NCBI GenBank assembly: GCA_963841565.1 | Contig: CAWJCY010000006.1 | Coordinates: 192,001-256,000, forward strand | DNA from: an uncultured Nitrososphaerales archaeon | Lineage (GTDB): Archaea > Thermoproteota > Nitrososphaeria > Nitrososphaerales > Nitrososphaeraceae | DNA length: 64,000 nt | Direction: 5' to 3' | Shown: piece after piece, positions 9,001-63,804 of the stretch | Layout: each line of letters begins with the position of its first letter | Position numbering within the stretch: the first letter of the stretch is position 1 | Position numbers and translations under genes: made by a program | Notes under the pieces: generated by a model | What the model was told of the DNA's origin: nothing | What the model saw: only the letters and a program-made list of their open reading frames with translations | The model's database searches: none

Positions 9001-9224
9001 TTACAAAACAATAACGATTATTATTTGATCTAATAGGTTAAGCTGTTGCGATTCATGGGTTGGGATCATATCCAAAAGTGTTATTGATTTAGGGGTTTCT
9101 AATTTTGTCTACTTTGTGTCTTTAGAAATTCCCAAAAGCTACACCTGCCGTGCATGATAAATCAACTCTACCCTCAGAATAAATTTATTAGGATGTAACA
9201 CGATCTAAGAAGACTCCTGACCCT

Positions 9225-11850: not shown

Positions 11851-12487
11851 TCATAGGAGTTATCATACCGTAGGTACGCTTTAAAACATTTTCATTCATG
11901 TTCATTTATTGGGAATGGTCAATTTAATGGTCCGGAACAGCCATACATAGAGGGGATCTGATTCAGGCGACTTTTATTGCAAACTTAACTTATGCATACG
12001 GAATGAAAGTGTTTTCCATGCAAATGCATTAGAACTGTTCCTCTACTCTCTCTATGGGGTTATTTTGAGCTCAATATGAGAAATTGTTAATCGTCATTCT
12101 TAGACGTTTCTAAACTAGTTACCACTTCATCATAAATCTCATCCTTGATTATCACTATCTAGAAAAGTAACATGCTAAAATAGTTCAATTGGATTTTTAA
12201 AGAATCTAAAATTAAATATTAATGTTTTAAATCAAAAAAGCAGACTTAGAAGACCATTTTTGGATGGATTATCAAATTTCAAATTTAACAATAGAAGATA
12301 ATACGAAGTTTAATTTGGTCGGATTGACCAGTTTAAGATTGGAAGAATACCTGTAAAGATTGCTTTCAATGAAAGCCTTACATTAATTCATGGAAAATAA
12401 TTATCAAATCATTCGGATCCTGCAACACATTGGTTGTCTTTCAATTCCCAATTATTAGTTTAAATAAAGGTTACCACTGATAATTAG

Positions 12488-15115
12488 GTGACACTAATTC
12501 GAGAGATTGCAAGAAAATGGCTCGCTGAACCACTTGAGAATTTGAAGGTAGATAAGGTTGAAGAATCTGATGGTCGTAGTCAGGAGTTTGATACTCATCC
12601 TCATGCTAATCATCCAACCAAACCAGATTATGAGAATAGGCGAATTAGAATTGGTATAGATGTGGGTGGTACGTTTACAAAAGCAGTAGCAATAGATATG
12701 TCTACAGGAAGTATCATAGGGAAATCTACCCTACCTACTACTCACAAATCAAATCAAGGTGTTGCAACAGGCATCTTACAAGCGCTATCAGATGTTATGA
12801 TTAGGTTTGAGATACAAAATTCTGAAGTGGAACTCATATCTCATAGTACCACTCAGGCCGTAAATGCCTTGCTTGAAGGTGATACAGCTAAGGTTGGAAT
12901 CATAGGGATGGGAGTTAGCTTAGAGAAGTCCAACATCATTAAACGCACACACATTAAAGATATCACACTAGATGGTAACGGAAAAAAATATATCAAGACC
13001 TGTTATAGGTACTTGGATACTTCTGCATATCTAGGCGAAGAAAGGGTGAGGTCTTTAATCCTCGAACTTGTACGCGAAGGAGCCAAAGTCCTTGTGATCA
13101 GTGAAGCATATGGTGTAGATGACCCTAGTAACGAAGATTTCGTCGAGAATGTCGCAAGGTCCAATATTATGGGAAGTGATGGCAAAAAAGTTCCCGTAAT
13201 TGCAGCTCATGATCTAACAGGAATTTATGGTCTAGAGATCCGGACTATGACTGCCGTGATTAATGCAAGTATTCTGCCGAAGGCCGCTAGTACTGCAAAG
13301 TTCGTTGAATATGCCGTAAGAGAGAAGCTTGGAATCTCCAAAAATACATCAATAAAGATAATGAAAGGCGACGGAGGGCTTACAGATATCGATGCATTTG
13401 AGACAAAACCCATAATAACTGTTCTATCAGGACCTGCAGCTAGTGTTGCGGGGGCTCTTCTTCACTTGAGGGTATTAAATGGAGTTTTTGTAGAGGTCGG
13501 CGGAACTTCGACAAATGTGTGCGTAATAAAGGACGGTAAGCCTAAAGTGAACTACGCTACCATAGTTCAATATCCTACGTGTATTCGCTCATTGGATGTA
13601 AGAGTTGTGAATGTCGCAGGAGGCTCTATCGTCATGTTATCAAAAGACAAGCGAAAAATATTAGACGTGGGTCCTAGGTCTGCGCATATAGCTGGTTTGA
13701 AGTATTCCTGTTTCGCTGAGCCTTACGAGCTCCAGGAAGGAACGATTATACGATTTAAACCTGAGATTGAGGATGACTCGCCTCTCAAACACACAACCAA
13801 TGTACATGAATCCAATATCAATGGCGAAGAACAAAGCATGATCTATGCCGTAATTAAAGGAAGAGGTCTAACTAATGGGTTAGGAAAAGAGAAGAGCTCA
13901 AGAGAAAGACTATTTGCCATAACGACCACATGTGCAGCCAATGCGCTTGGTTTGATTTCTGACGACGATTATGCCAAAGGCAATTCCGAATCTGCAAAGA
14001 TTGCCCTGTCAATTCTCGCCCGAGAAATAGGTACTTCGACTGAAAATGCTGCCAAACAAATACTTGAAATCGCGAGTGACAAGATTTTACATGTCATGGG
14101 TCCTATGTTAAAGGAATATGCTCTAACATATAACAAACCAAGAGGATTCCTACTGAATAGAAAGGAAAATAATGATCGTTCTGGAAATGATGGAAGAAAT
14201 CGAATTAATAATAGCTTTGTCTTAGTGGGAGGAGGTGGAGGTGCTTCGGTCCTGGTGCCTCACCTAGCCAAGACACTTAATATGAATTATAAGAAAGCAG
14301 AACACGCTGAAGTCATATCATCAATTGGTGTAGCCGCTGCCATGATTCACGAAGAACTTGAAAGAACAGTTGATATGAATCCCAACCCAGAAGTGGTTTC
14401 CCTCTTGATGGATGAAGTCAAGGACCTAGCCTTGGCTAAAGGCGCACTACCTGAATCCATCACTATACAATCAGAATATGTCAGCGATCGATCTGTCTTA
14501 CGAGTCACTGCAACTGGCAACATGAGCTTAGACATAGGTACAGCCAATTCTAGGGAAATTAGCAACCATGAAGCTGAAGACATCGCCAAGAATCTTTTCG
14601 GAACAGCTTCGAGCCCGGATTCAGGAGATCCAGGTGATGGCATACAAGAGGTAGATCGTAATGTGACCGTCAAGCGTATTGATTTCAACGTGAAGAACTA
14701 TCACATATTTGAATGTGAAAAAAAAGTCAAGAACCTATTTGGATTTATCCCGCGTTCACAGAAAAAGCAAATTTCAATATTGATTCTCGATAAATTTGGT
14801 AGAGTGAGACTTTCCTTAACAGGCGTAAACATCATCAAGGGCACCAAACAAGATGTCTTGACTGATCTGCTTACACTACTTGGGAGTCCTCTTGATCCGT
14901 TAGAAGGAAACGATAGTAATAAAAAGGTTAAGTTCCAGCATAGCAGAAATACGGATGACAAGCACTGGGATCTTCCACCACAGGTACATCTGTTAGATGA
15001 TATTCGGCTAATAGATTTTTCGAATCTCACATCTTCAGAAAATCTCTCTAAAGTCATTAGGGATGAAGTTCAAAAATCATCTTCTAAAGACATTCTTGCT
15101 GTAATCAAAAAGTAA
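12488..15115 (+). CDS. hydantoinase A / 5-oxoprolinase-family ATP-dependent protein
   Basis: IGIDVGGTFTKAV, SHSTTQAVNALLEG, LSGPAASVAGA and EVGGTSTNV motifs. Confidence 0.88.
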   Translation: MTLIREIARKWLAEPLENLKVDKVEESDGRSQEFDTHPHANHPTKPDYENRRIRIGIDVGGTFTKAVAIDMSTGSIIGKSTLPTTHKSNQGVATGILQALSDVMIRFEIQNSEVELISHSTTQAVNALLEGDTAKVGIIGMGVSLEKSNIIKRTHIKDITLDGNGKKYIKTCYRYLDTSAYLGEERVRSLILELVREGAKVLVISEAYGVDDPSNEDFVENVARSNIMGSDGKKVPVIAAHDLTGIYGLEIRTMTAVINASILPKAASTAKFVEYAVREKLGISKNTSIKIMKGDGGLTDIDAFETKPIITVLSGPAASVAGALLHLRVLNGVFVEVGGTSTNVCVIKDGKPKVNYATIVQYPTCIRSLDVRVVNVAGGSIVMLSKDKRKILDVGPRSAHIAGLKYSCFAEPYELQEGTIIRFKPEIEDDSPLKHTTNVHESNINGEEQSMIYAVIKGRGLTNGLGKEKSSRERLFAITTTCAANALGLISDDDYAKGNSESAKIALSILAREIGTSTENAAKQILEIASDKILHVMGPMLKEYALTYNKPRGFLLNRKENNDRSGNDGRNRINNSFVLVGGGGGASVLVPHLAKTLNMNYKKAEHAEVISSIGVAAAMIHEELERTVDMNPNPEVVSLLMDEVKDLALAKGALPESITIQSEYVSDRSVLRVTATGNMSLDIGTANSREISNHEAEDIAKNLFGTASSPDSGDPGDGIQEVDRNVTVKRIDFNVKNYHIFECEKKVKNLFGFIPRSQKKQISILILDKFGRVRLSLTGVNIIKGTKQDVLTDLLTLLGSPLDPLEGNDSNKKVKFQHSRNTDDKHWDLPPQVHLLDDIRLIDFSNLTSSENLSKVIRDEVQKSSSKDILAVIKK

Positions 15116-15272: not shown

Positions 15273-15930
15273 TCATTGGGACAAATTTGGAACGATCCGG
15301 TAAATATTTCCGTGGATGTGTGATAGCAAATAAAGATAACCATCTGGCCCTTCTTTAATATCTGCAATAACCCCGAAGCCTTGCCCTAATACCACGTTTT
15401 CAAGCTCCTCATTGTCGTTTGCAACTTTATCTGCAAGATCTCCTTCAAGATCTAACTTCGTTCTGTCATCGCCTAATTCAAAAATATATAGATAGTCATT
15501 ATTATAATCGGCAACGAACAGATCATTTTGATACTCTTCTCCCCAGAGTATCACCTCTAAGGAATTCTAAAGCGGTTACGCCAATAGACATATTCCAAGC
15601 AAATTCAGGACTTCTATATCTTCCTTTATCGGCGAAAGTTTCTAAATTGGCTGGTATCGTTACCATATTGTCATCAAAATATCCTCTAGCGGCTGGTAAT
15701 GGGTTTGACGTAGTAACTGGCCACCATCCTTGTACTCTTAACCATCCACTATTGAATCCAGGTTCTACAAGGTTAATTTCGTCACCATACCCAGCGCCAT
15801 TTTCACTATCCCACAACTTATTAGTAACCGGATCGAATGCAAGTCCAAATCCATTTCTTATGCCAAATGCATAGTATTTATTCAGAAGACTATGATCAGC
15901 TAGAACTCCGGTAGTACCATTCTCTCCTCC
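15273..15930 (-). pseudogene. PQQ-dependent sugar dehydrogenase (GSDH) C-terminal remnant
   Basis: YYAFGIRNGFGLAFDPVTNKLWDSENG..GDEINLVEPGFNSGW, continuing after a frameshift near 15543 into EEYQNDLFVADYNN...DIKEGPDGYLY; N-terminal half missing. Confidence 0.8.
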
Positions 15931-16414
15931 CAGTACTGGTTCACCGATTCTTTGAGTAATTGATATCACAATTCCGAAATAACATTTACAGAACAAATTG
16001 CAAGTAGCGATGGTGCGTAATATGTAGTTACGCACTAAATCCATTGTGAATTCGCGGATAAACATTTGATAATGTTTGAAGTATTTGACAAGCGGATTAG
16101 GTACAATGTGATGTGTTCTAATCATGACTACAGATTGGTCACTAGTGATTTCGAAACTTCATAAACGGATTGAGTACCCCTGATCTCTACCGCGTTTCCC
16201 CACGAATAGCATACGGCATATCCGTTTGGTTAAATGACACAACTTACAAAGCTCCTTTCAGTGCCTTTAATCGTGGATGTCGTATCACTCTAAAAAAGAA
16301 AGTATTTGAATGGATCGATTGCATAATATTAGATAGATCTAGAGAAAAATCGAATGCAAGCTAGAATTTTATGGTTCATTAATCGTTGGTAATGTTGAAT
16401 CCATACGGATAGCA

Positions 16415-16450
16415 TTTAAATATTAGGCTACACTAATTAGGTTAGTCTAA
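16415..16450 (+). promoter_or_regulatory. TATA box TTTAAATA plus two tandem DtxR-type boxes (TTAGGCTACACTAA, TTAGGTTAGTCTAA)
   Basis: Two abutting 14-bp palindromes directly after the TATA box, 6 nt before ATG 16457. Confidence 0.8.
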
Positions 16451-16456
16451 TCTAAA

Positions 16457-16771
16457 ATGAGCCTTTCGAGCGATTACGAAGAAAATAATTCATTATTGTT
16501 GTTGAGAGAGGTTGCAGAAATGATTACTTATAAAATAATTACATCAACCATGTACTCAGCAAAGACGGTACTCCAGATATCAACTGAGAATAAGATACCA
16601 TTGAGTTCAACTTACAAAAAGATAAGTAGATTATGCAAAGCGGGGATTTTGTCAGTAGAAAGAGCTTCGATAGACGATAATGGAAAGAAGGTTCTTTATT
16701 ACAAAAGTAAAATAAAAGCGATCGAGGCATGTCTAAATGAGAATGGACTTGCGGTTCACGTAAAGAAATAA
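16457..16771 (+). CDS. winged-helix (ArsR-like) transcriptional regulator
   Basis: SAKTVLQISTENKIPLSSTYKKISRL...GKKVLYYKS helix-turn-helix and wing pattern. Confidence 0.85.
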   Translation: MSLSSDYEENNSLLLLREVAEMITYKIITSTMYSAKTVLQISTENKIPLSSTYKKISRLCKAGILSVERASIDDNGKKVLYYKSKIKAIEACLNENGLAVHVKK

Positions 16772-17250: not shown

Positions 17251-17709
17251 ATGAATAGACAAATATTGAACATGAAATCCATGTTCGTTATCTATATGTG
17301 TCTCTTAGCTGCTATATCTCTACCTGTGAGCTCTATGGCAAGTAATTCTGCATTCGCTCAAGGTACGACTGAAAGTGATGCAGCTGCAGGTGAAGAAGCA
17401 CAGAGTACTAGCGATCCATTAGAACTTATCTCTACAATACAGAGCTTGCTGAATCAAGCAGTAGTAGAATATGGTAACCAGAACTTCACTGGTGCAGCAG
17501 AATTAGCACAAATTGCATATCTGGATAATTATGAGTATTTAGAGGCTCCATTGGGTCAACTAGATCCCGCGTTGATGGAAGCAACTGAAATAATGATCAG
17601 GGAAGATATGCAAAATTCAATAGAATCAAGAGTACCTCTTAGCGAATTGCAACAATTGGTCAATACCATTGATGGTAATTTAATTACAGCACAACAACTG
17701 TTCGGTTGA
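17251..17709 (+). CDS. secreted helical protein homologous to the FTR1 ectodomain repeat
   Basis: Signal peptide ending SAFAQ; AYLDNYEYLEAPL...LMEATEIMIRE matches AYLDNFEYLEAPI...LMLDIETEMRE in 22421..24832. Confidence 0.85.
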   Translation: MNRQILNMKSMFVIYMCLLAAISLPVSSMASNSAFAQGTTESDAAAGEEAQSTSDPLELISTIQSLLNQAVVEYGNQNFTGAAELAQIAYLDNYEYLEAPLGQLDPALMEATEIMIREDMQNSIESRVPLSELQQLVNTIDGNLITAQQLFG

Positions 17710-18022
17710 CGAAACACAACCTCTTTTTATTACCTTATTTTATTATGCTTTGCCTATTTCACGTAAAGGTTAGCATTTTCCTATCAGAACCTTCAAAGTA
17801 AATGATTGTAAAGCGTCATAGGTTATAAAGCGTCTGTAGACTCAATAACACTCGAGGCAAGCTTAGAAATAGAAATTATTTTGGTGAGAGCCCTCATTTT
17901 ACCAATGGTTAGTTTGAAAACATATAGCTTTTGTATTATGACAAGGATGATAGCTAGGACTCGCGGATACCCGCTATGTCAGATATTAAGTGGTTAGTTT
18001 GTCATGACAACATGGTTAGAAA

Positions 18023-18069
18023 TCCTACTCGATTAGATTTTGATCAACCGTCAATCCAATCGAGTAGGA
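18023..18069. other. 17-bp inverted repeat / strong hairpin
   Basis: TCCTACTCGATTAGATT-N13-AATCCAATCGAGTAGGA. One mismatch, which is a G-U pair only in the minus-strand transcript. A T-run follows on the plus strand. Confidence 0.8.
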
Positions 18070-18165
18070 GGTGTTTTTTTCTGACCTGGCGCGAGTAGTG
18101 ATTTTCTATCGGAATTTCCATAGATGCCAATCCCAGACATTCCAATAGTTCATTTGTTCAGTGTA

Positions 18166-18201
18166 TTAGTTAATCCTAATTAGGTAAGACTAATATTTAT
18201 G
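18166..18201 (-). promoter_or_regulatory. TATA-like CATAAATA plus two tandem DtxR-type boxes
   Basis: Plus strand: TTAGTTAATCCTAA (18166-18179), TTAGGTAAGACTAA (18180-18193), TATTTATG; same layout as 16415-16450 and 22303-22338. Confidence 0.78.
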
Positions 18202-18645
18202 CTTGCTTTTGATTCTCATTGAGGAGAATTTTCACAATACTTATCGCTAACATAAAGACATATGTTTTTGTTTATTTCATTAATTTAGTCAGATTACGGG
18301 GTAAAAGTGGACACATATCAGTACTACGGTTCATGAGCTATAAGATACGTATTACTGTCAATTATTGCTTTCCATGTTCCTCATACATATGTTCTTTCAA
18401 CAAGTCTTCAGATCGACATCTAGTTTTGCATTCGGAACAAACGAAAAACTTGTGATCATTAATCGTGTCGCCATCCTTGCTGGCGTGTGTTTTGGTCAAG
18501 GTCGTTCGTGATATGTGCACATCGGGCTTTATATAGGTATAAAATGCATTAAAAAGGTTATTTCAAGATGAAAATTGAAAAGAACGCTCAATGATAAATA
18601 TTTGATAGTACTCACTCAAGATAAAATTTAATTCTGGGCTGAAAA

Positions 18646-19119
18646 CTATACTGGGCAGCATTTACCTGGTGGTATTGGATGTCCATGAGGACATCGCATT
18701 GGATGATTCAGTAAGGTGCACAAAGCATCTGTAAAGACTTCCTTCATATGATGCTCAATACCACACACCATTTCTTCATCGATCGCGATTCTCAAACTAT
18801 CTCTCATAAGTATTTCGAGAAGACGGGTATTTCGTATCATATGTCTTGCTATCTGCTCACCCTTCGCAGTAATCCTAATTGAAATATTTTCCTTACTGTA
18901 TTCCACAAAGTTCTCATCATTAAGTTTATGTAACATGCTCACAACTGAAGGCTGTCTAATGTTAAGTAATTTAGCAATAGAACTTACCTTCACCTCTTTG
19001 CCTCTCTCTCCTATATGCCAAATTGCCTTAAGATACATTTCCAGGCTCTCTGAACGAGCTGTCCCGATATATAGCTCTTCATCGACAGATTTCTTCGACT
19101 GACTACTATTATTATTCAA
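18646..19119 (-). CDS. DtxR/IdeR/MntR-family metal-dependent regulator (short form, no FeoA domain)
   Basis: EMYLKAIW, IAKLLNIRQPSVVSMLHKL helix-turn-helix, RNTRLLE, CGIEHH and CPHGHPIP. Confidence 0.95.
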   Translation of the reverse strand: MNNNSSQSKKSVDEELYIGTARSESLEMYLKAIWHIGERGKEVKVSSIAKLLNIRQPSVVSMLHKLNDENFVEYSKENISIRITAKGEQIARHMIRNTRLLEILMRDSLRIAIDEEMVCGIEHHMKEVFTDALCTLLNHPMRCPHGHPIPPGKCCPV

Positions 19120-21104: not shown

Positions 21105-21590
21105 TTAGCGGATTTCCAGCTTCGCGAGTATGTCTTCGATAGTCTGTTCGTCTTCCAATTCTGCATCAAGCAGATCTAGTGCTAGATGGTAGGTACCGTG
21201 ATCTTTGTCCTTAACGTTATTGGCAAGGTCATTATATAACTTGATTACGCTTCTTTCAAATTCCAGTGCTTTTTCCAAAGCACTGCGAAGTGTCAAGTAC
21301 CTTGAAGGTTGTAGCTTACCCAAGCCGCTTTCTTGTTCCCATAAAGCAGGGTCATCTTTGGCATTAGTTCCAAGTTGCATCAGCCTAATAGAGACTTTTT
21401 TAGCATGCCCCAGTTCTTCATCTGCTCGCTCTTCGAAAAACTTTTGTTCTAGCACACCTAGTCCTTCTATATTCTGAGAAATGTACCAGAAATAATGGAA
21501 TGCTGACAATTCTCCAGCATAAGCGGTTTTCAGCATCTCTATCGTACCTTCGACTCCAGAACCAGCAATTTCTTTTCCCATTTTGCCCAT
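21105..21590 (-). CDS. ferritin-like protein (bacterioferritin/DPSL-like)
   Basis: Four-helix bundle with E...EELGH...E ligand pattern (YAGELSA, ADEELGHA, ALEFERS). Confidence 0.85.
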   Translation of the reverse strand: MGKMGKEIAGSGVEGTIEMLKTAYAGELSAFHYFWYISQNIEGLGVLEQKFFEERADEELGHAKKVSIRLMQLGTNAKDDPALWEQESGLGKLQPSRYLTLRSALEKALEFERSVIKLYNDLANNVKDKDHGTYHLALDLLDAELEDEQTIEDILAKLEIR

Positions 21591-21642: not shown

Positions 21643-21656
21643 TTAGTACGAACTAA
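21643..21656. promoter_or_regulatory. single DtxR-type box TTAGTACGAACTAA upstream of the BRE/TATA of the ferritin-like gene
   Basis: TTAG-N6-CTAA; minus-strand TATA (TATTAAATAG) at 21621-21630. Confidence 0.6.
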
Positions 21657-21847: not shown

Positions 21848-22108
21848 TTAGCTCTGCTTCGGTGATATATCTTTTTCCTTCTTCCTATGTGGAGGTTCTA
21901 ACCCAATGGTTCCCATTATTGAATCTCCTATTGGTTCAAAAATAGTCCGAAGTGATTCGGTATCATAGTATTTTATCACCTCGTTCAACTTGCTCTCGAT
22001 CTTTCTCTGTTCGATTTTCAAAAGCATATATCGGGATATTAACGCCTTCACTTCATCTGCCTTGTCTTCCTCAATTGGGTTCTTATCCGAAGAGCTTGGC
22101 GGGGACAT
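21848..22108 (-). CDS. hypothetical 86-aa protein with a coiled-coil segment
   Basis: ORF 6 nt downstream of 22115..22300; probably the same operon. Confidence 0.6.
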   Translation of the reverse strand: MSPPSSSDKNPIEEDKADEVKALISRYMLLKIEQRKIESKLNEVIKYYDTESLRTIFEPIGDSIMGTIGLEPPHRKKEKDISPKQS

Positions 22109-22114
22109 TCTTTA

Positions 22115-22300
22115 TCAAGGGGCGTCTTTTAAGACTACTACATTACCATATGTAAGTTGGACCTCATTCATGCCATAGGTAAGCTGTTCTAGAGGGTCCA
22201 AAATCCCATCGGTATTATCACATACGTAAGTCGTTAGATCTCTGTCTTCAATTTTTTCATTCTTATTGACATTTTCAAGAAAATTGTGGGCCTCTTCCAT
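22115..22300 (-). CDS. hypothetical acidic 61-aa protein
   Basis: ATG 2 nt after the tandem-box promoter; internal QLTYG duplication. Confidence 0.55.
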   Translation of the reverse strand: MEEAHNFLENVNKNEKIEDRDLTTYVCDNTDGILDPLEQLTYGMNEVQLTYGNVVVLKDAP

Positions 22301-22302
22301 TG

Positions 22303-22338
22303 TTAGACTTTCCTAATTAGGATATCCTAATATTTAAA
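22303..22338 (-). promoter_or_regulatory. TATA box TTTAAATA plus two tandem DtxR-type boxes
   Basis: Plus strand: TTAGACTTTCCTAA (22303-22316), TTAGGATATCCTAA (22317-22330, perfect palindrome), TATTTAAA. Confidence 0.82.
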
Positions 22339-22403: not shown

Positions 22404-22417
22404 TTAGGTTAGCCTAA
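22404..22417 (+). promoter_or_regulatory. DtxR-type box TTAGGTTAGCCTAA before ftr1
   Basis: Matches the core of the DtxR/IdeR consensus; 3 nt before ATG 22421. Confidence 0.82.
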
Positions 22418-22420
22418 TGG

Positions 22421-24832
22421 ATGAGTCTCAGTGGATGCTTAGCGAAATCGTATTTTTTGGCGTTTTTGACTCTTGCGACTTGTAATTTGATTATTTCTCC
22501 GTTGATTATTGATGATGGAACCGCACAACAATTAGCCCAAAACCAACAATCAACGGATCCACTTATAGTCTTCATCAATCTAGAAAGGATTGGAACTCAG
22601 CTTAACCTTACACAATACAGTTTGAATAGTGGTGACCTTGAATCTGCGTTTCAGCATGCCTATATACCTCATTCGGTTACCTTTCCAGTAATTAAACCCA
22701 TACTGAGCGAAGATGACCCAGCTTCTTCAAAAAGTCTCGAGGGTCTACTTACCGATCTTCCGATTAAGGTCCGTGCGTCAAACAGTCCAGAAGAGGCATA
22801 TTCCAATATTGAATCTGATGTTGCAACAATTAAAAGCCTACTGAACAAAATCGCGAACTCAACGGCTGGACTAAGCTCCCTTGAAGATAAGGGATTTGTC
22901 CTGCAGGCATCGGCTGTGCTTCTGGAAGACGCGATTCAATCATATAAAATAACTAACGCTTCATCTACTCAGGATTCCTCGAGCACATTTAATCTTCAGA
23001 ATTCGTTAGGGTTAGTAAACAGTTCACTTACAGATTTTGAAAGAGTAGCAGACTCCGTGGATGAGCGGAGACGAGAAGAAATTAGATCCTTCTATAATCA
23101 GATACAAGAAAGCATGAAAAATGATGCACCATTTGATACCGTTGCAAGTGTTGCTTCCGCAATTGAACGAGACTTTACAGAGGAACTAACTTTAAGTGGC
23201 GGCAGTGAAAGCGCATTAGAACAGGCAAAATACTTTTCTACTATTAGGGATCTACTTAACAGCACTATTACATCGGTGAATGATGGAGATTATAAAGGTG
23301 CAGATGCGACTGCAATCAAAGCATATCTAGATAACTTTGAATATCTTGAGGCACCTATCGAAAAACATGATTCTGATTTGATGTTAGACATCGAGACAGA
23401 GATGAGAGAAGAACTTCGTCAGATGATAAGGGAGGAACGTTCTCCACAAGAGATTAACGGTTTTATCACATCGATCTTAGGCAAATTGGATCAGGCTGAA
23501 GATTTGCTGAAAAACGATCCTGAATATCGTTCGAACTTGAATACAAATACAACAGCTAGCGGAGCTTCACTTGCTAATATCCAAGGATTGCGGCAAGGAT
23601 TCGGTACCTATACTGGAGAAATTCGGCAGATGGGAGAGGCAGATGATCCAGCAAAGGAATCTGTAAGAAACAACATAGACCAGATAAGATTGAAACTAAG
23701 TGAGATGCTTAGACTCTATGAGAATAAGAATTATGAAGGTTCACTTTTAGCCGCGCGATCCGCTTATTTAGATAGTTATGAGATCGTTGAAATTCCGTTA
23801 AGACCAATTGACCCTGATTTCACCCTTGAGATGGAGATTAGATTTGCTGAATTAAGAAACCTGCTTCAGCAGCAGGTACCACTACAGGAAGTCGAAGCAA
23901 AGACCATAGAAATTAGAAGAGGATTAGACGAATCAGAGAGGCTTGTGTCTGGTGTGGGAGTTGTGGCACCTGCAATTGCGTTCTCGACTTCCTTTTCAAT
24001 TATATTCAGAGAAGGTCTTGAATCAGCCTTAATAATAGGCGCCATTCTCACATATCTGCAAGCATCAAGAAATACTCGCTTCAAAAAGCATGTATACTAC
24101 GGGATTCTAATTGCAGTTGTTGCTACAGCTGCAACTTGGTTTGTGGCACAATATATAATTGAAATTTCTGGGGCGAACAGGGAACTGATAGAGGCTGTGG
24201 CTGGCCTATCGGCGGTAGCAGTTCTTTTCTGGGTGAGCTTCTGGGTACTAAACAAGATCGAAACTAAGAAATGGATCGAATTTGTTAAAGCAAAGGTCTG
24301 GAAGGCCACTACTACGGGTAGTGTAATTGTGTTTGTTGCTCTGGCATTTTTCACAGTCTATAGAGAAGGTTTTGAGACGGTCTTGTTCTACCAAGCTATG
24401 CTATCCTTCGCAAAGTACATGGAGCTGTACGTTATTGCGGGCATGTTCTTAGGACTAGCGGTGATTATTGGGGTAGCTATTTTAATCAATAGACTTGGCA
24501 GAAGATTACCCCTAAGGGTACTCTTTGCTTTAACCATGGGAATAGGAGCTTACATGTCGATAGCTTTCATGGGCAATGCGGTTAGAGAATTGCAAGAATT
24601 AGGAATAGTGTCTACTACTCCATTGGTCGGCGTAGTTCCAAGGTTGGATATTAACCTAGCAACCATGACAGGCATCCATCCCACACTAGAATCGATAATT
24701 GCTCAAGTTGTTCTCCTATCCATATACTTGATAGGCTCGCTTTATATACTAGTCCTGAAGCCCCGGAGACAGAAAGCTATCCAAAGTGCAAGAAAATCTA
24801 TGGCAGATCTACAAGAAAAGAAAGAGGGATAA
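22421..24832 (+). CDS. ftr1: FTR1/EfeU-family iron permease with a ~500-aa extracellular helical-repeat N-terminus
   Basis: IFREGLES and VYREGFET REXXE motifs in the TM domain; signal peptide; repeated AYLDx[FY]ExxExP helices. Confidence 0.93.
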   Translation: MSLSGCLAKSYFLAFLTLATCNLIISPLIIDDGTAQQLAQNQQSTDPLIVFINLERIGTQLNLTQYSLNSGDLESAFQHAYIPHSVTFPVIKPILSEDDPASSKSLEGLLTDLPIKVRASNSPEEAYSNIESDVATIKSLLNKIANSTAGLSSLEDKGFVLQASAVLLEDAIQSYKITNASSTQDSSSTFNLQNSLGLVNSSLTDFERVADSVDERRREEIRSFYNQIQESMKNDAPFDTVASVASAIERDFTEELTLSGGSESALEQAKYFSTIRDLLNSTITSVNDGDYKGADATAIKAYLDNFEYLEAPIEKHDSDLMLDIETEMREELRQMIREERSPQEINGFITSILGKLDQAEDLLKNDPEYRSNLNTNTTASGASLANIQGLRQGFGTYTGEIRQMGEADDPAKESVRNNIDQIRLKLSEMLRLYENKNYEGSLLAARSAYLDSYEIVEIPLRPIDPDFTLEMEIRFAELRNLLQQQVPLQEVEAKTIEIRRGLDESERLVSGVGVVAPAIAFSTSFSIIFREGLESALIIGAILTYLQASRNTRFKKHVYYGILIAVVATAATWFVAQYIIEISGANRELIEAVAGLSAVAVLFWVSFWVLNKIETKKWIEFVKAKVWKATTTGSVIVFVALAFFTVYREGFETVLFYQAMLSFAKYMELYVIAGMFLGLAVIIGVAILINRLGRRLPLRVLFALTMGIGAYMSIAFMGNAVRELQELGIVSTTPLVGVVPRLDINLATMTGIHPTLESIIAQVVLLSIYLIGSLYILVLKPRRQKAIQSARKSMADLQEKKEG

Positions 24833-54049: not shown

Positions 54050-54343
54050 TTAACCTTCTTCCCAGCCCTTTTCAAATACACCATTCTTGTGAAGAGGAAC
54101 TGGCGCACCTGAAGTGTATTCCATAGGCCTCATCCAGAAAATAGCATGGGTTGGACAGACCCCTATGCATGCTCCGTCTGATATGCATCGTTCAGGGTAA
54201 AAGATAAATGCTTTTCCTCTTTTCCATCCCTCTACCGGCTTTACCCTCAGTACATCTGGACCTAAAGCTGTACAAATCTCTACGCAGAGAGCACAACCAA
54301 TACATCTCTGTTCGTCTACATCTGGAAGTATAGCAATTGGCAT
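54050..54343 (-). CDS. dicluster ferredoxin
   Basis: CIGCALCVEIC and CISDGACIGVCP. Confidence 0.95.
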   Translation of the reverse strand: MPIAILPDVDEQRCIGCALCVEICTALGPDVLRVKPVEGWKRGKAFIFYPERCISDGACIGVCPTHAIFWMRPMEYTSGAPVPLHKNGVFEKGWEEG

Positions 54344-54477
54344 CTTCTAATTCACTAATGGTGCATCTCTCTGAGACTATTTAAACACTATGTCAATTGT
54401 AAAACAGTGTTATATCATCTAATGAAACGAAGAAATAAAAAACAAATACAAAAAATTACCAGAATTTATTTACTTGT

Positions 54478-62360: not shown

Positions 62361-63788
62361 ATGGGAAGGACGCTGTTTGATAAGATTTGGGATAATCATG
62401 TGGTTTATCAAGAAAAAGACGCAGCGCACGGAAATCCATCCCTAATTTATATAGATTGTCATTTAATACACGAGGTCACATCCCCTCAGGCTTTTGCTGG
62501 TTTGAAGCAACTTGGACGAAAGGTCAGACGCCCCGACCTGACATTTGCAACAATGGATCACAACGTTCCAACGACTAACCGTTCCATTCCAGTAATTGAT
62601 AATGACTCATCTATCCAAATGCATACTTTGGGAGAAAACTGCAATGAGTTTGGCATTACGCTCTTTGACATGCTCAGCCCTCAACAGGGCATAGTCCATG
62701 TCATCGGTCCCGAACTAGGCCTGACGCTGCCCGGTATGACAATTGTTTGTGGAGATAGTCACACATCCACTCACGGCGCATTTGGAGCCTTTGCGCTGGG
62801 CATAGGTACAAGTGATGTTGAGCACGTACTTGCCACACAATGTCTCTGGATGCACAAGCCCAAGAGCCTCAACATCAAGTTCAGTGGAACCATTAGCAAC
62901 CGGCCTGGACTATCCGCCAAAGATATTATTCTTTCAACAATTAGACAAATAGGCATATCTGGAGGGATCGGATCAGTGATCGAGTACAGTGGTGAAGGAA
63001 TTTCTACTCTTTCAATGGATCAAAGAATGACAATCTGCAACATGTCTATTGAGGGTGGAGCAAGGGCTGGATTGATAGCTCCAGATGAGGTGACCTTCGA
63101 TTACATAAGAGGACGTCCATTTGCACCATCTGGAGAAAAGCTAGAAAAGATGATTGAATATTGGGAATCATTTCTAACTACAGATTCTGAAACTTGTCAC
63201 GATAAATCTGTCAAAATGGATCTTTCGAGACTAGTCCCTCAAGTCAGTTGGGGGACAAATCCCTCGATGGTTATAGATGTTACAGAAAATATCCCATACC
63301 CAGAAGTATTTGCAGATGGAAATGTCGAGGAGGAAAAATCAGCCAAGAGGGCATTGGAATACATGGGTCTAGAGTCTGGTGTGCCTATAACTGAGATAAA
63401 CATAGATCGTGTGTTTATTGGATCTTGCACTAATGCCAGGTTGGAAGATTTGGTAGATGCATCTAGGTTGCTTGAGGGAAGGACTGTCTCGTCCAGAGTC
63501 AATGCAATGGTGGTTCCAGGTTCTCAATCTGTTAAAAGGGCTGCTGAAGAGAAAGGCATCGATAGAATTTTTAAGAAGGCTGGCTTCGATTGGCGCGAAT
63601 CTGGATGTAGTATGTGCCTAGGAATGAATCCCGATATACTTGCTCCTAAGCAGAGATGTGCAAGTACATCTAATCGCAACTTTGAAGGGCGACAAGGATT
63701 TGGTGGAAGGACCCATTTAGTTAGCCCAATCATGGCCGCGGCCGCAGCAGTGGAGGGAAAATTTGTAGACGTACGTGAATGGTTTTAG
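62361..63788 (+). CDS. leuC: 3-isopropylmalate dehydratase large subunit, bacterial type
   Basis: HEVTSPQAF, DSHTSTHG, IGSCTN, GCSMCLGMN and NRNFEGRQG. Confidence 0.97.
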   Translation: MGRTLFDKIWDNHVVYQEKDAAHGNPSLIYIDCHLIHEVTSPQAFAGLKQLGRKVRRPDLTFATMDHNVPTTNRSIPVIDNDSSIQMHTLGENCNEFGITLFDMLSPQQGIVHVIGPELGLTLPGMTIVCGDSHTSTHGAFGAFALGIGTSDVEHVLATQCLWMHKPKSLNIKFSGTISNRPGLSAKDIILSTIRQIGISGGIGSVIEYSGEGISTLSMDQRMTICNMSIEGGARAGLIAPDEVTFDYIRGRPFAPSGEKLEKMIEYWESFLTTDSETCHDKSVKMDLSRLVPQVSWGTNPSMVIDVTENIPYPEVFADGNVEEEKSAKRALEYMGLESGVPITEINIDRVFIGSCTNARLEDLVDASRLLEGRTVSSRVNAMVVPGSQSVKRAAEEKGIDRIFKKAGFDWRESGCSMCLGMNPDILAPKQRCASTSNRNFEGRQGFGGRTHLVSPIMAAAAAVEGKFVDVREWF

Positions 63789-63804
63789 ATGGGCCTAAAT
63801 TAGG

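Follow-up and report, generated by a model that had tools for sequence, protein, structure and literature searches.

The DNA analysed here carries on its minus strand, between positions 18201 and 18012, a promoter followed by a putative small RNA (sRNA) gene, hereafter sRNA-1. The window, i.e. the whole 64,000-nucleotide stretch under study, corresponds to positions 192001-256000 of contig C6 in the genome of an uncultured Nitrososphaerales archaeon (2.05 Mb in 13 contigs, 88% complete); this genome bears an archaeal amoA gene and the organism is therefore an ammonia-oxidising archaeon. The promoter consists of a TATA box, CATAAATA (18194-18201, minus strand, read directly from the sequence), and of an operator made of two abutting 14-bp TTAG-N6-CTAA palindromes (18166-18193, minus strand) located between the TATA box and the predicted transcription start: box 1, TTAGTCTTACCTAA, lies directly after the TATA box at 18193-18180, and box 2, TTAGGATTAACTAA, follows at 18179-18166. 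No open reading frame (ORF) longer than 40 amino acids (aa) is present on either strand between 17710 and 18218; a 15-codon ORF, MNYWNVWDWHLWKFR (18106-18153, minus strand; ATG at 18153, TAG at 18108-18106), was judged not to be a gene, as discussed below. The predicted sRNA-1 is about 155-160 nucleotides (nt) long (18012-18172, minus strand), its 5' end being placed from the TATA spacing and its 3' end from the point at which conservation stops. It would comprise, from 5' to 3', a first hairpin (hairpin 1; 18106-18148) in which a 10-bp stem, CUAUUGGAAU / AUUCCGAUAG, is formed around the seed block UUGGAAUGUCUGGGAUUGGCAUCUAUGG (18118-18145), the latter providing the 5' arm and the apical region; a conserved linker, GCCAGGUCAG-A-rich-ACACCU (18070-18090); a terminal hairpin (hairpin 2; 18023-18069) with a 17-bp stem and a loop variable in both sequence and length; and a 3' tail, AUUUCUAACC (18013-18022), which is the likely end of the RNA. 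The original prediction, made from the letters alone, had reported the TATA box with its double box, the 15-codon ORF and the 17-bp hairpin; direct reading of the minus strand recovers all of them at the positions then given, and the single non-Watson-Crick position of hairpin 2 is, as it had stated, a G-U pair on the minus strand (A-C on the plus strand).

A DNA search was run over 41 genomes, and the locus region was found in 10 of the 13 relatives of the genus. The alignment first comprised the window and nine genus relatives; a second copy from genome G008 and a diverged copy from genome G020 (genus g8) were added later, giving 12 sequences. The aligned relatives include an unpublished genome, G013, on which no claim is based alone. 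Conservation, given as the mean pairwise identity per segment, is distributed as a mosaic that begins at the promoter and ends just after hairpin 2. The TATA box and boxes have an identity of 0.87: the TATA box is conserved as ATAAATA or TTAAATA, and the double box with its invariant CCTAATTAG core is kept, in all 12 aligned sequences. The seed block reaches 0.95, with 23 consecutive nt invariant in 10 sequences out of 10; the 3' arm of hairpin 1 is at 0.88, the variable linker at 0.50 and the conserved linker at 0.91. The two arms of hairpin 2 are at 0.81 and 0.85 around a loop at 0.32, and the tail is at 0.80. Identity is 0.45 downstream of the tail (0.45-0.49 over the downstream flank) and 0.48 in the upstream intergenic DNA.

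The 163-nt minus-strand RNA folds into the two hairpins at -46.6 kcal/mol (z = -5.45), and none of 200 shuffled sequences folds as well. Covariation across the syntenic regions, proposed as a check along with the original prediction, bears out this fold: 94.4% of the structure cells are paired in the 12-sequence alignment, compared to 26-50% when the partners are slid, and seven pairs change on both sides, compared to a mean of 1.9 in shuffled alignments, of which none out of 500 reached seven. These pairs are shared between hairpin 1 (3 of 10) and hairpin 2 (4 of 14). In hairpin 1, the consensus U-G pairs fit the minus strand only, the plus strand having an A-C mismatch. A covariance model built from 10 sequences (R1) scores 164 bits here, 144-189 bits in ten same-genus copies and 39.9 bits in the g8 genome G020; it finds the RNA in 11 of 151 genomes of the family including its own, namely in 9 of the 13 genus relatives, in the single g8 genome and in none of the other 137. 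An Rfam search (cmscan, 17700-18400, E up to 10) returned only five chance-level matches, all far below the gathering score; C/D-box snoRNA models gave matches of this kind (E 3.5-4) at 17757-17827 on the minus strand. The locus is non-coding, conserved and structured, as is the rule for the iron-sparing sRNA class, and it most likely represents a stand-alone small non-coding RNA gene whose transcription and two RNA ends are deduced from its sequence.

The operator points to metal control. According to excerpts from PMC7762939 and PMC4598388, the DtxR and IdeR consensus operators are inverted repeats of 19 bp composed of TTAGG and CCTAA units. Compared with the DtxR consensus in these excerpts, the 19-mer at 16437-16455, in the boxed promoter of a 104-aa ORF, agrees at 17 of 19 positions, and 22404-22417, a single box immediately ahead of the start of a permease fusion of the FTR1/EfeU type, is identical to consensus positions 1-14. 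The boxes of sRNA-1 retain the TTAG and CTAA ends and the CCTAATTAGG centre; by their sequence, and as far as the excerpted consensus goes, they are of the DtxR/IdeR iron-box type. Unlike the 19-bp DtxR/IdeR operators, however, the sRNA promoters have two abutting 14-bp palindromes, i.e. 28 bp, between the TATA box and the start. TTAGN6CTAA boxes are strongly concentrated in the window (13 found for 1.59 expected; none of 100 shuffles reached 13), whereas single boxes are not enriched over the 2.05-Mb genome (63 found for about 60 expected from base composition). The genome contains only five abutting double boxes, which represent four distinct loci, the C5 and C8 copies being identical; all lie beside a TATA box, and no further double box appeared when up to two mismatches were allowed in the genome scan. 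Three of the four loci are in the window: the sRNA-1 locus, the promoter of a 104-aa ORF (TATA box and boxes at 16414-16455, plus strand; ORF at 16457-16771) and that of a 61-aa ORF (22303-22338, minus strand; ORF at 22115-22300). As the original prediction had noted, the promoter without a normal gene has the layout of these two protein-gene promoters, in which the TATA box is followed by the abutting boxes and then by the ATG.

The usual means of shutting off an archaeal promoter is for a metal-loaded repressor to sit between its TATA box and its start, and MDR1 of Archaeoglobus, an archaeal DtxR homologue, represses from a site located downstream of the TATA box. As the sRNA-1 operator occupies such a position, the RNA is expected to be made when iron is scarce, together with the uptake genes. 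The presumed box binder is encoded nearby, by a gene for a 157-aa metal-dependent repressor of the DtxR/MntR family (18646-19119, minus strand) with Pfam matches to Fe_dep_repr_C (3.4e-20) and Fe_dep_repress (4.6e-14). This gene lies beside the sRNA in three genus relatives, and a partial match is found at the end of the G020 locus. The regulator gene, a ferritin-like gene (21105-21590) and the FTR1/EfeU-type permease gene are all located within 5 kb. It is from these neighbouring genes (FTR1/EfeU and ferritin) and from the ferredoxin targets described below, not from the regulator protein, that we infer iron to be the signal.

The fourth double-box locus lies outside the window and specifies a second predicted RNA, sRNA-2, of about 200 nt (C8:11379-11679, identical at C5:42286-42586; locus L029:2380-2680), again with a TATA box and a double box (C8:11426, identical at C5:42333) and no gene behind them: the boxes are followed by a 43-codon frame only, and no ORF of at least 50 aa starts nearby. 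The sRNA-2 region was found in 11 of the 13 genus relatives at 76-93% identity (89-93% in the seven closest). sRNA-1 and sRNA-2 share AAUGUCUGG, AUUGGCAUCU and the start of the terminal-hairpin stem, CCUACUCG, and the apical loop of sRNA-2 contains UUGGCAUCU. Of the four double-box promoters, two precede small protein genes and two have no gene behind them; as the RNAs from the latter have motifs in common, half of the promoters of the regulon are likely to drive related non-coding RNAs. Rfam scans of the sRNA-2 locus, and of the g30 and G020 loci considered below, gave no match at E up to 0.1.

The motifs common to the two RNAs are the antisense of the 5' end of fdxA, a gene of the window that encodes a 97-aa ferredoxin with two 4Fe-4S motifs (54050-54343, minus strand; Pfam Fer4, 5.1e-12). 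Both conserved seeds were compared, by duplex energy, with the region from -40 to +50 of 2460 ORF starts; duplicate rows arising from contig pairs C5/C8 and C6/C10 were counted once in the ranks. The best partner of the sRNA-1 seed among the 2460 is fdxB, which encodes a 97-aa ferredoxin (C6:110426; -31.6 kcal/mol, with the identical C10 copy in the next row), and the next unique gene is fdxC, which encodes a 178-aa ferredoxin (C6:345779; -29.6 kcal/mol). The sRNA-2 seed ranks fdxB first (-37.0), followed by fdxA (-34.5), a 132-aa SRPBCC-like ORF (-34.0) and fdxC (-30.6 kcal/mol). The median energies over the 2460 starts are -14.3 kcal/mol for the sRNA-1 seed and -15.0 kcal/mol for the sRNA-2 seed. 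All ferredoxin sites span the start codon, from about -7 to +27. The predicted site of the sRNA-2 loop on the fdxA mRNA (54317-54346, minus strand; -3 to +26) involves 13 consecutive Watson-Crick pairs and nine more past a 6-by-6 internal loop; sRNA-1 forms 14 pairs with fdxB across AUAGAUGCCAGUC and 25 pairs, with a 3-nt bulge, with fdxC. The TATA boxes of the ferredoxin genes are located about 35 nt upstream of the ATG, and their mRNAs should thus have short leaders. Target prediction against Fe-S protein mRNAs, which had also been proposed with the original prediction, hence placed ferredoxin starts at or near the top of the gene starts, and the complementarity of a seed to the starts of mRNAs for iron-rich proteins, as in iron-sparing sRNAs, is found by computation.

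The three ferredoxins all match Pfam Fer4, as do 10 ORFs of the genome in total, one of them a duplicate; a strict CxxCxxCxxxCP expression undercounts ferredoxins (7 ORFs, missing fdxA and fdxB) and was replaced by the Fer4 search. None of 10 mononucleotide shuffles per seed reached the observed best, the best shuffle of the sRNA-2 seed being at -31.6 kcal/mol. If the hits were independent, a calculation by hand puts at about 1e-7 the chance that three of the four top unique genes, out of about 2455, are Fer4 genes; the honest figure, for one independent Fer4 hit, is nearer 0.004-0.01. Comparing the long sRNA domains with gene starts yielded long, loop-rich duplexes without discrimination, and plain 9-mer and two-motif expression scans gave many chance matches, which served as leads only. 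The pairing partners are themselves conserved: two 97-aa ferredoxins and fdxC, with near-identical 5' ends, are present in all five further genus genomes checked and in G020.

We wondered how far the arrangement extends. A pattern composed of the double box, a gap of 10-90 nt and then TTGGCATCT was used to scan 401 genomes of the order. It occurs in 14 of them, all from one family (4 of 5 genomes in genus g1, 8 of 37 in g30 and the single g33 genome); the other 19 families searched gave no match, nor did the backwards control of the pattern. The g30 RNA would be shorter, at about 95 nt: its seed, GGAAGUCUGGC-R-UUGGCAUCUAC, lies near the 5' end, almost directly after the boxes, and its 3' part consists of CACCUCC, a GC-rich terminal hairpin of different sequence, CUAACC and a pyrimidine-rich tail, the hairpin having been folded for locus L070 only. 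In both the g8 and the g30 RNAs, a hairpin of different sequence stands in the place of hairpin 2. Each g30 RNA pairs with the ferredoxin starts of its own genome, as judged from the duplexes formed at those starts. In genome G120 (g30), the seed forms 22 bp with a one-base bulge on fdxA from -3 to +20 (-43.4 kcal/mol); the RNA of this genome has UAUGG where its relatives have UCUGG, a change that removes the sole mismatch with fdxA.

Public RNA data touch the locus. Three metatranscriptome runs contain one contig each matching a 901-nt stretch around it, at 95-99% identity. One contig, assembled at a depth of 2.3, spans 17978-18213, that is, the sRNA locus and about 35-40 nt on each side; the others cover 18338-18525, over a 52-aa zinc-finger gene, and, in a third study, 17782-17932 in poorly conserved intergenic DNA. 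Such contigs carry no information on strand, ends or level, and we take the first as a weak hint that sRNA-1 is transcribed.

On the anatomy, conservation pattern, covariation, operator type and rank of complementarity that computation establishes, we put at about 70% the reading in which sRNA-1 is an iron-controlled RNA of about 155 nt that is governed by a DtxR-type operator, is antisense to ferredoxin starts and saves iron. The original prediction of an iron-repressed RNA of about 150 nt with a RyhB-like role is supported, at the level of sequence, by the conservation mosaic, the covariation, the DtxR-type boxes and the complementarity to ferredoxin starts. When iron is ample, the metal-loaded DtxR-family repressor encoded 450 nt upstream would occupy the double box and block transcription; during iron shortage, sRNA-1 would be made along with the iron-uptake genes. 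The invariant block on top of hairpin 1 would then pair with positions from about -7 to +27 of the mRNAs for small 4Fe-4S ferredoxins and cover the start codon, best on fdxB and fdxC and less well on fdxA, while the seed of sRNA-2 would be fitted to fdxA and fdxB. Such pairing would block the initiation of ferredoxin translation and spare iron, and the terminal hairpin and short tail would end the RNA. Transcription, the position of both RNA ends, the role of iron, not manganese, as the signal and the repression of the targets are all predicted steps. Beyond this locus, we lean towards a wider interpretation in which the soil ammonia-oxidising archaea of the family possess a DtxR-controlled, iron-sparing sRNA family that arose from inverted ferredoxin 5' ends and silences ferredoxins by long antisense pairing over the start codon, its paralogues apparently being tuned to different ferredoxin genes and the RNA having been remodelled between genera, from about 95 to about 200 nt, around a single conserved seed.

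Several observations weigh against the iron-sparing reading. Regarding the targets, the energy of the sRNA-1 seed taken alone is not significant, one of its 10 mononucleotide shuffles having reached -31.4 compared to -31.6 kcal/mol; fdxA lies outside the best 14 for this seed; the 5' ends of the three ferredoxin genes are alike (MPI/V..PD) and therefore do not count as independent hits; and the gene set is a crude ORF call with first-start rules. Part of the seed is moreover engaged in the stem of hairpin 1, which would have to open. Regarding the RNA, the wobble and mismatch positions of hairpin 2 favour each strand twice and so do not tell the strands apart, and the tail lacks a canonical oligo-U run, reading UUUCU in most sequences. 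The contig spanning 17978-18213 runs about 40 nt past the predicted start and through the TATA box, and could result from read-through or DNA carry-over. Regarding the signal, the NCBIfam MntR and DtxR models score the 157-aa regulator alike, all below their cut-offs; the protein is assigned to neither and manganese is a possible metal signal. Finally, the breadth pattern is absent from three of the four well-sampled genera of the family (g2, 0 of 22 genomes; g5, 0 of 20; g12, 0 of 12).

The modest energy of the sRNA-1 seed, which barely exceeds that of its shuffles, also serves the first alternative, i.e. that the locus encodes a real, metal-regulated and structured RNA that acts not by ferredoxin pairing but by protein binding or on other targets through the GCCAGGUCAG...ACACCUCC linker. 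This linker, which has no predicted target, rivals the seed in conservation (0.91), and CACCUCC resembles, in our own reading, an anti-Shine-Dalgarno sequence. However, the invariant block is precisely the part that is antisense to ferredoxin starts, three diverged forms (sRNA-1, sRNA-2 and the g30 RNA) keep complementarity to the same site, and a target scan with the linker (18070-18090) yielded nothing outstanding: its best energy is -25.3 kcal/mol and rank 3 is a 322-aa ORF with a CPGCG motif, all within the noise. We consider this alternative unlikely. It is more doubtful still that the locus is a relic or decoy acting at the DNA level, an inverted remnant of a ferredoxin 5' end beside operators that titrate the repressor without any functional RNA. 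The plus strand of the seed does read as a shortened ferredoxin 5' end (ATGCCAAT..CCAGAC), and the transcription of sRNA-1 is only predicted; yet 23 nt have stayed invariant while the flanks fall to 0.45, two covarying hairpins are kept, and the TATA box is at a fixed distance in four genera.

A short Trp-rich ORF followed by a hairpin superficially resembles a leader peptide, as would be found in a cis-acting leader or attenuator of a downstream minus-strand gene. This is quite improbable: the only gene downstream, here and in six relatives (G013, G009, G008, G007, G003 and G005), is convergent and on the plus strand (17251-17709), a TATA box and boxes of its own precede the next gene in G020, and the 15-codon ORF is not conserved. 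Very improbable, too, is the caveat attached to the original prediction that hairpin 2 is a plus-strand terminator within otherwise ordinary intergenic DNA. A run of seven Ts does follow the hairpin by 5 nt on the plus strand, but it occurs only here and shrinks to four Ts in most relatives; conservation continues for 120 nt past the run, up to the promoter; the plus-strand DNA upstream (17905-18012) is poorly conserved and without a gene; and the nearest plus-strand gene, of 152 aa, ends 310 nt upstream and has a T5 run of its own. Least probable is the Trp-rich micropeptide of 15 residues, the other product initially envisaged. In its favour, its ATG comes 12 nt after the boxes, and the two boxed protein genes likewise have theirs close behind the boxes (at 1 and 2 nt). 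Against it, this ATG is lacking from all 11 of the related sequences, with a 1-nt indel at the start site, 1-nt indels break the frame, and no ORF corresponding to it is found in sRNA-2 or in the g30 RNAs. For the family, the micropeptide is thereby refuted. The four Trp codons of this ORF are accounted for by UGG being the antisense of CCA triplets in the ferredoxin 5' ends. A longer ORF broken by indels, a further caveat of the original prediction, can be set aside as well, since no relative has one.

Iron-sparing sRNAs are a textbook theme in bacteria, the functional class comprising RyhB, PrrF, FsrA, IsaR1, MrsI and IsrR. In Escherichia coli (RyhB) and Pseudomonas (PrrF1 and PrrF2), a metal-loaded repressor shuts off an sRNA that lowers iron-rich proteins; these RNAs are controlled through Fur boxes and depend on Hfq, and PrrF exists as a paralogue pair. 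The iron-sparing reading of sRNA-1 resembles RyhB and PrrF in logic, and PrrF also in having paralogues, with neither homology nor a shared Rfam family. The nearest system is MrsI (ncRv11846) of mycobacteria, described in excerpts from PMC6016810 as an iron-sparing sRNA whose start lies near an IdeR site and in which a conserved 6-nt seed in a hairpin loop pairs with the mRNA 5' ends of non-essential iron proteins, bfrA and others being targeted in their 5' untranslated regions. As far as these excerpts go, sRNA-1 has in common with MrsI the DtxR-family site near the start, the seed in a hairpin loop and the targeting of mRNA 5' ends, and differs from this bacterial RNA by its archaeal TATA promoter, its 28-bp double box and its predicted pairing of 13-22 bp across ferredoxin start codons; the Rfam scans revealed no sequence or structure match between the two. 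IsaR1 of Synechocystis is, according to excerpts from PMC7247011, induced by iron deficiency and represses transcripts for ferredoxin and for other Fe-S and photosynthetic proteins. Ferredoxin as a target is thus shared, whereas IsaR1 is a bacterial and unrelated RNA from a cyanobacterial Fur circuit (the excerpts from PMC7247011 being silent on its control). sRNA-1 is functionally like the bacterial iron-sparing sRNAs, as far as its sequence indicates, and is not homologous to RyhB, PrrF, IsaR1 or any Rfam family.

No archaeal iron-sparing sRNA was found in the full-text literature searched, which mostly excludes subscription journals, or in the excerpts of a 2026 review on prokaryotic sRNAs (PMC13414033). 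If the iron-sparing reading is true, this circuit would be the first case of iron-sparing riboregulation described in Archaea. Ammonia-oxidising archaea need unusually large amounts of iron owing to their abundant ferredoxins. In the marine ammonia oxidiser Nitrosopumilus maritimus, it is the ferredoxins that account for most of a high iron demand, and one of them decreases when iron is limiting (excerpts from PMC12974425); no mechanism is named for the fall, and the terms sRNA and DtxR are absent from that paper. By analogy, the predicted repression of ferredoxins matches this physiology, and for the soil lineage the locus provides a concrete hypothesis of ferredoxin control, with a named operator, RNA and seed and three named target sites. 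The locus could also serve as a marker of iron stress in metatranscriptomes from soil and fresh water.

Other features surround the locus. The TATA box is preceded, at a distance of about 10 nt, by an inverted repeat and a CA (ATTCTC-N6-GAGAAT, then CA; 18211-18230, minus strand). This element is conserved in the genus, with an identity of 0.76 compared to 0.48 in the intergenic DNA farther upstream; sRNA-2 and several g30 RNAs have a similar stretch, GA-N-AATCA, ahead of their TATA boxes, and the repeat may be the site of another factor. Farther upstream, the 52-aa ORF mentioned above (18362-18520, minus strand) matches the C2H2 zinc finger (Pfam zf-C2H2, E 8e-4, below cut-off) and is kept upstream of the sRNA in nine relatives. 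The 104-aa ORF at 16457-16771 (plus strand) gives a weak winged-helix (TrmB) match (E 0.012); in G020 the sRNA is directly followed by a homologue of 53% identity that has a boxed promoter of its own, and the 104-aa ORF may encode another regulator of this regulon. Behind the third double-boxed promoter, a 61-aa and an 86-aa ORF (21848-22300, minus strand), both without family match, are divergent from the FTR1/EfeU permease fusion (22421-24832).

Further single TTAGN6CTAA boxes are found at 21643-21656, 12484-12497, 12100-12113, 9089-9102 and 63785-63798; one lies about 50 nt upstream of the start of the ferritin-like gene (21590), and another overlaps the GTG start codon (12488) of a hydantoinase/oxoprolinase-like gene. 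A tRNA scan of the 64-kb window found none. Contigs C5 and C8 carry identical segments at the sRNA-2 locus, as do C6 and C10 at fdxB and its neighbours, which suggests assembly redundancy or recent duplication. Finally, a 200-aa ORF (15523-16125, minus strand) covers only positions 171-265 of the 332-position glucose/sorbosone dehydrogenase profile and may be a truncated gene.

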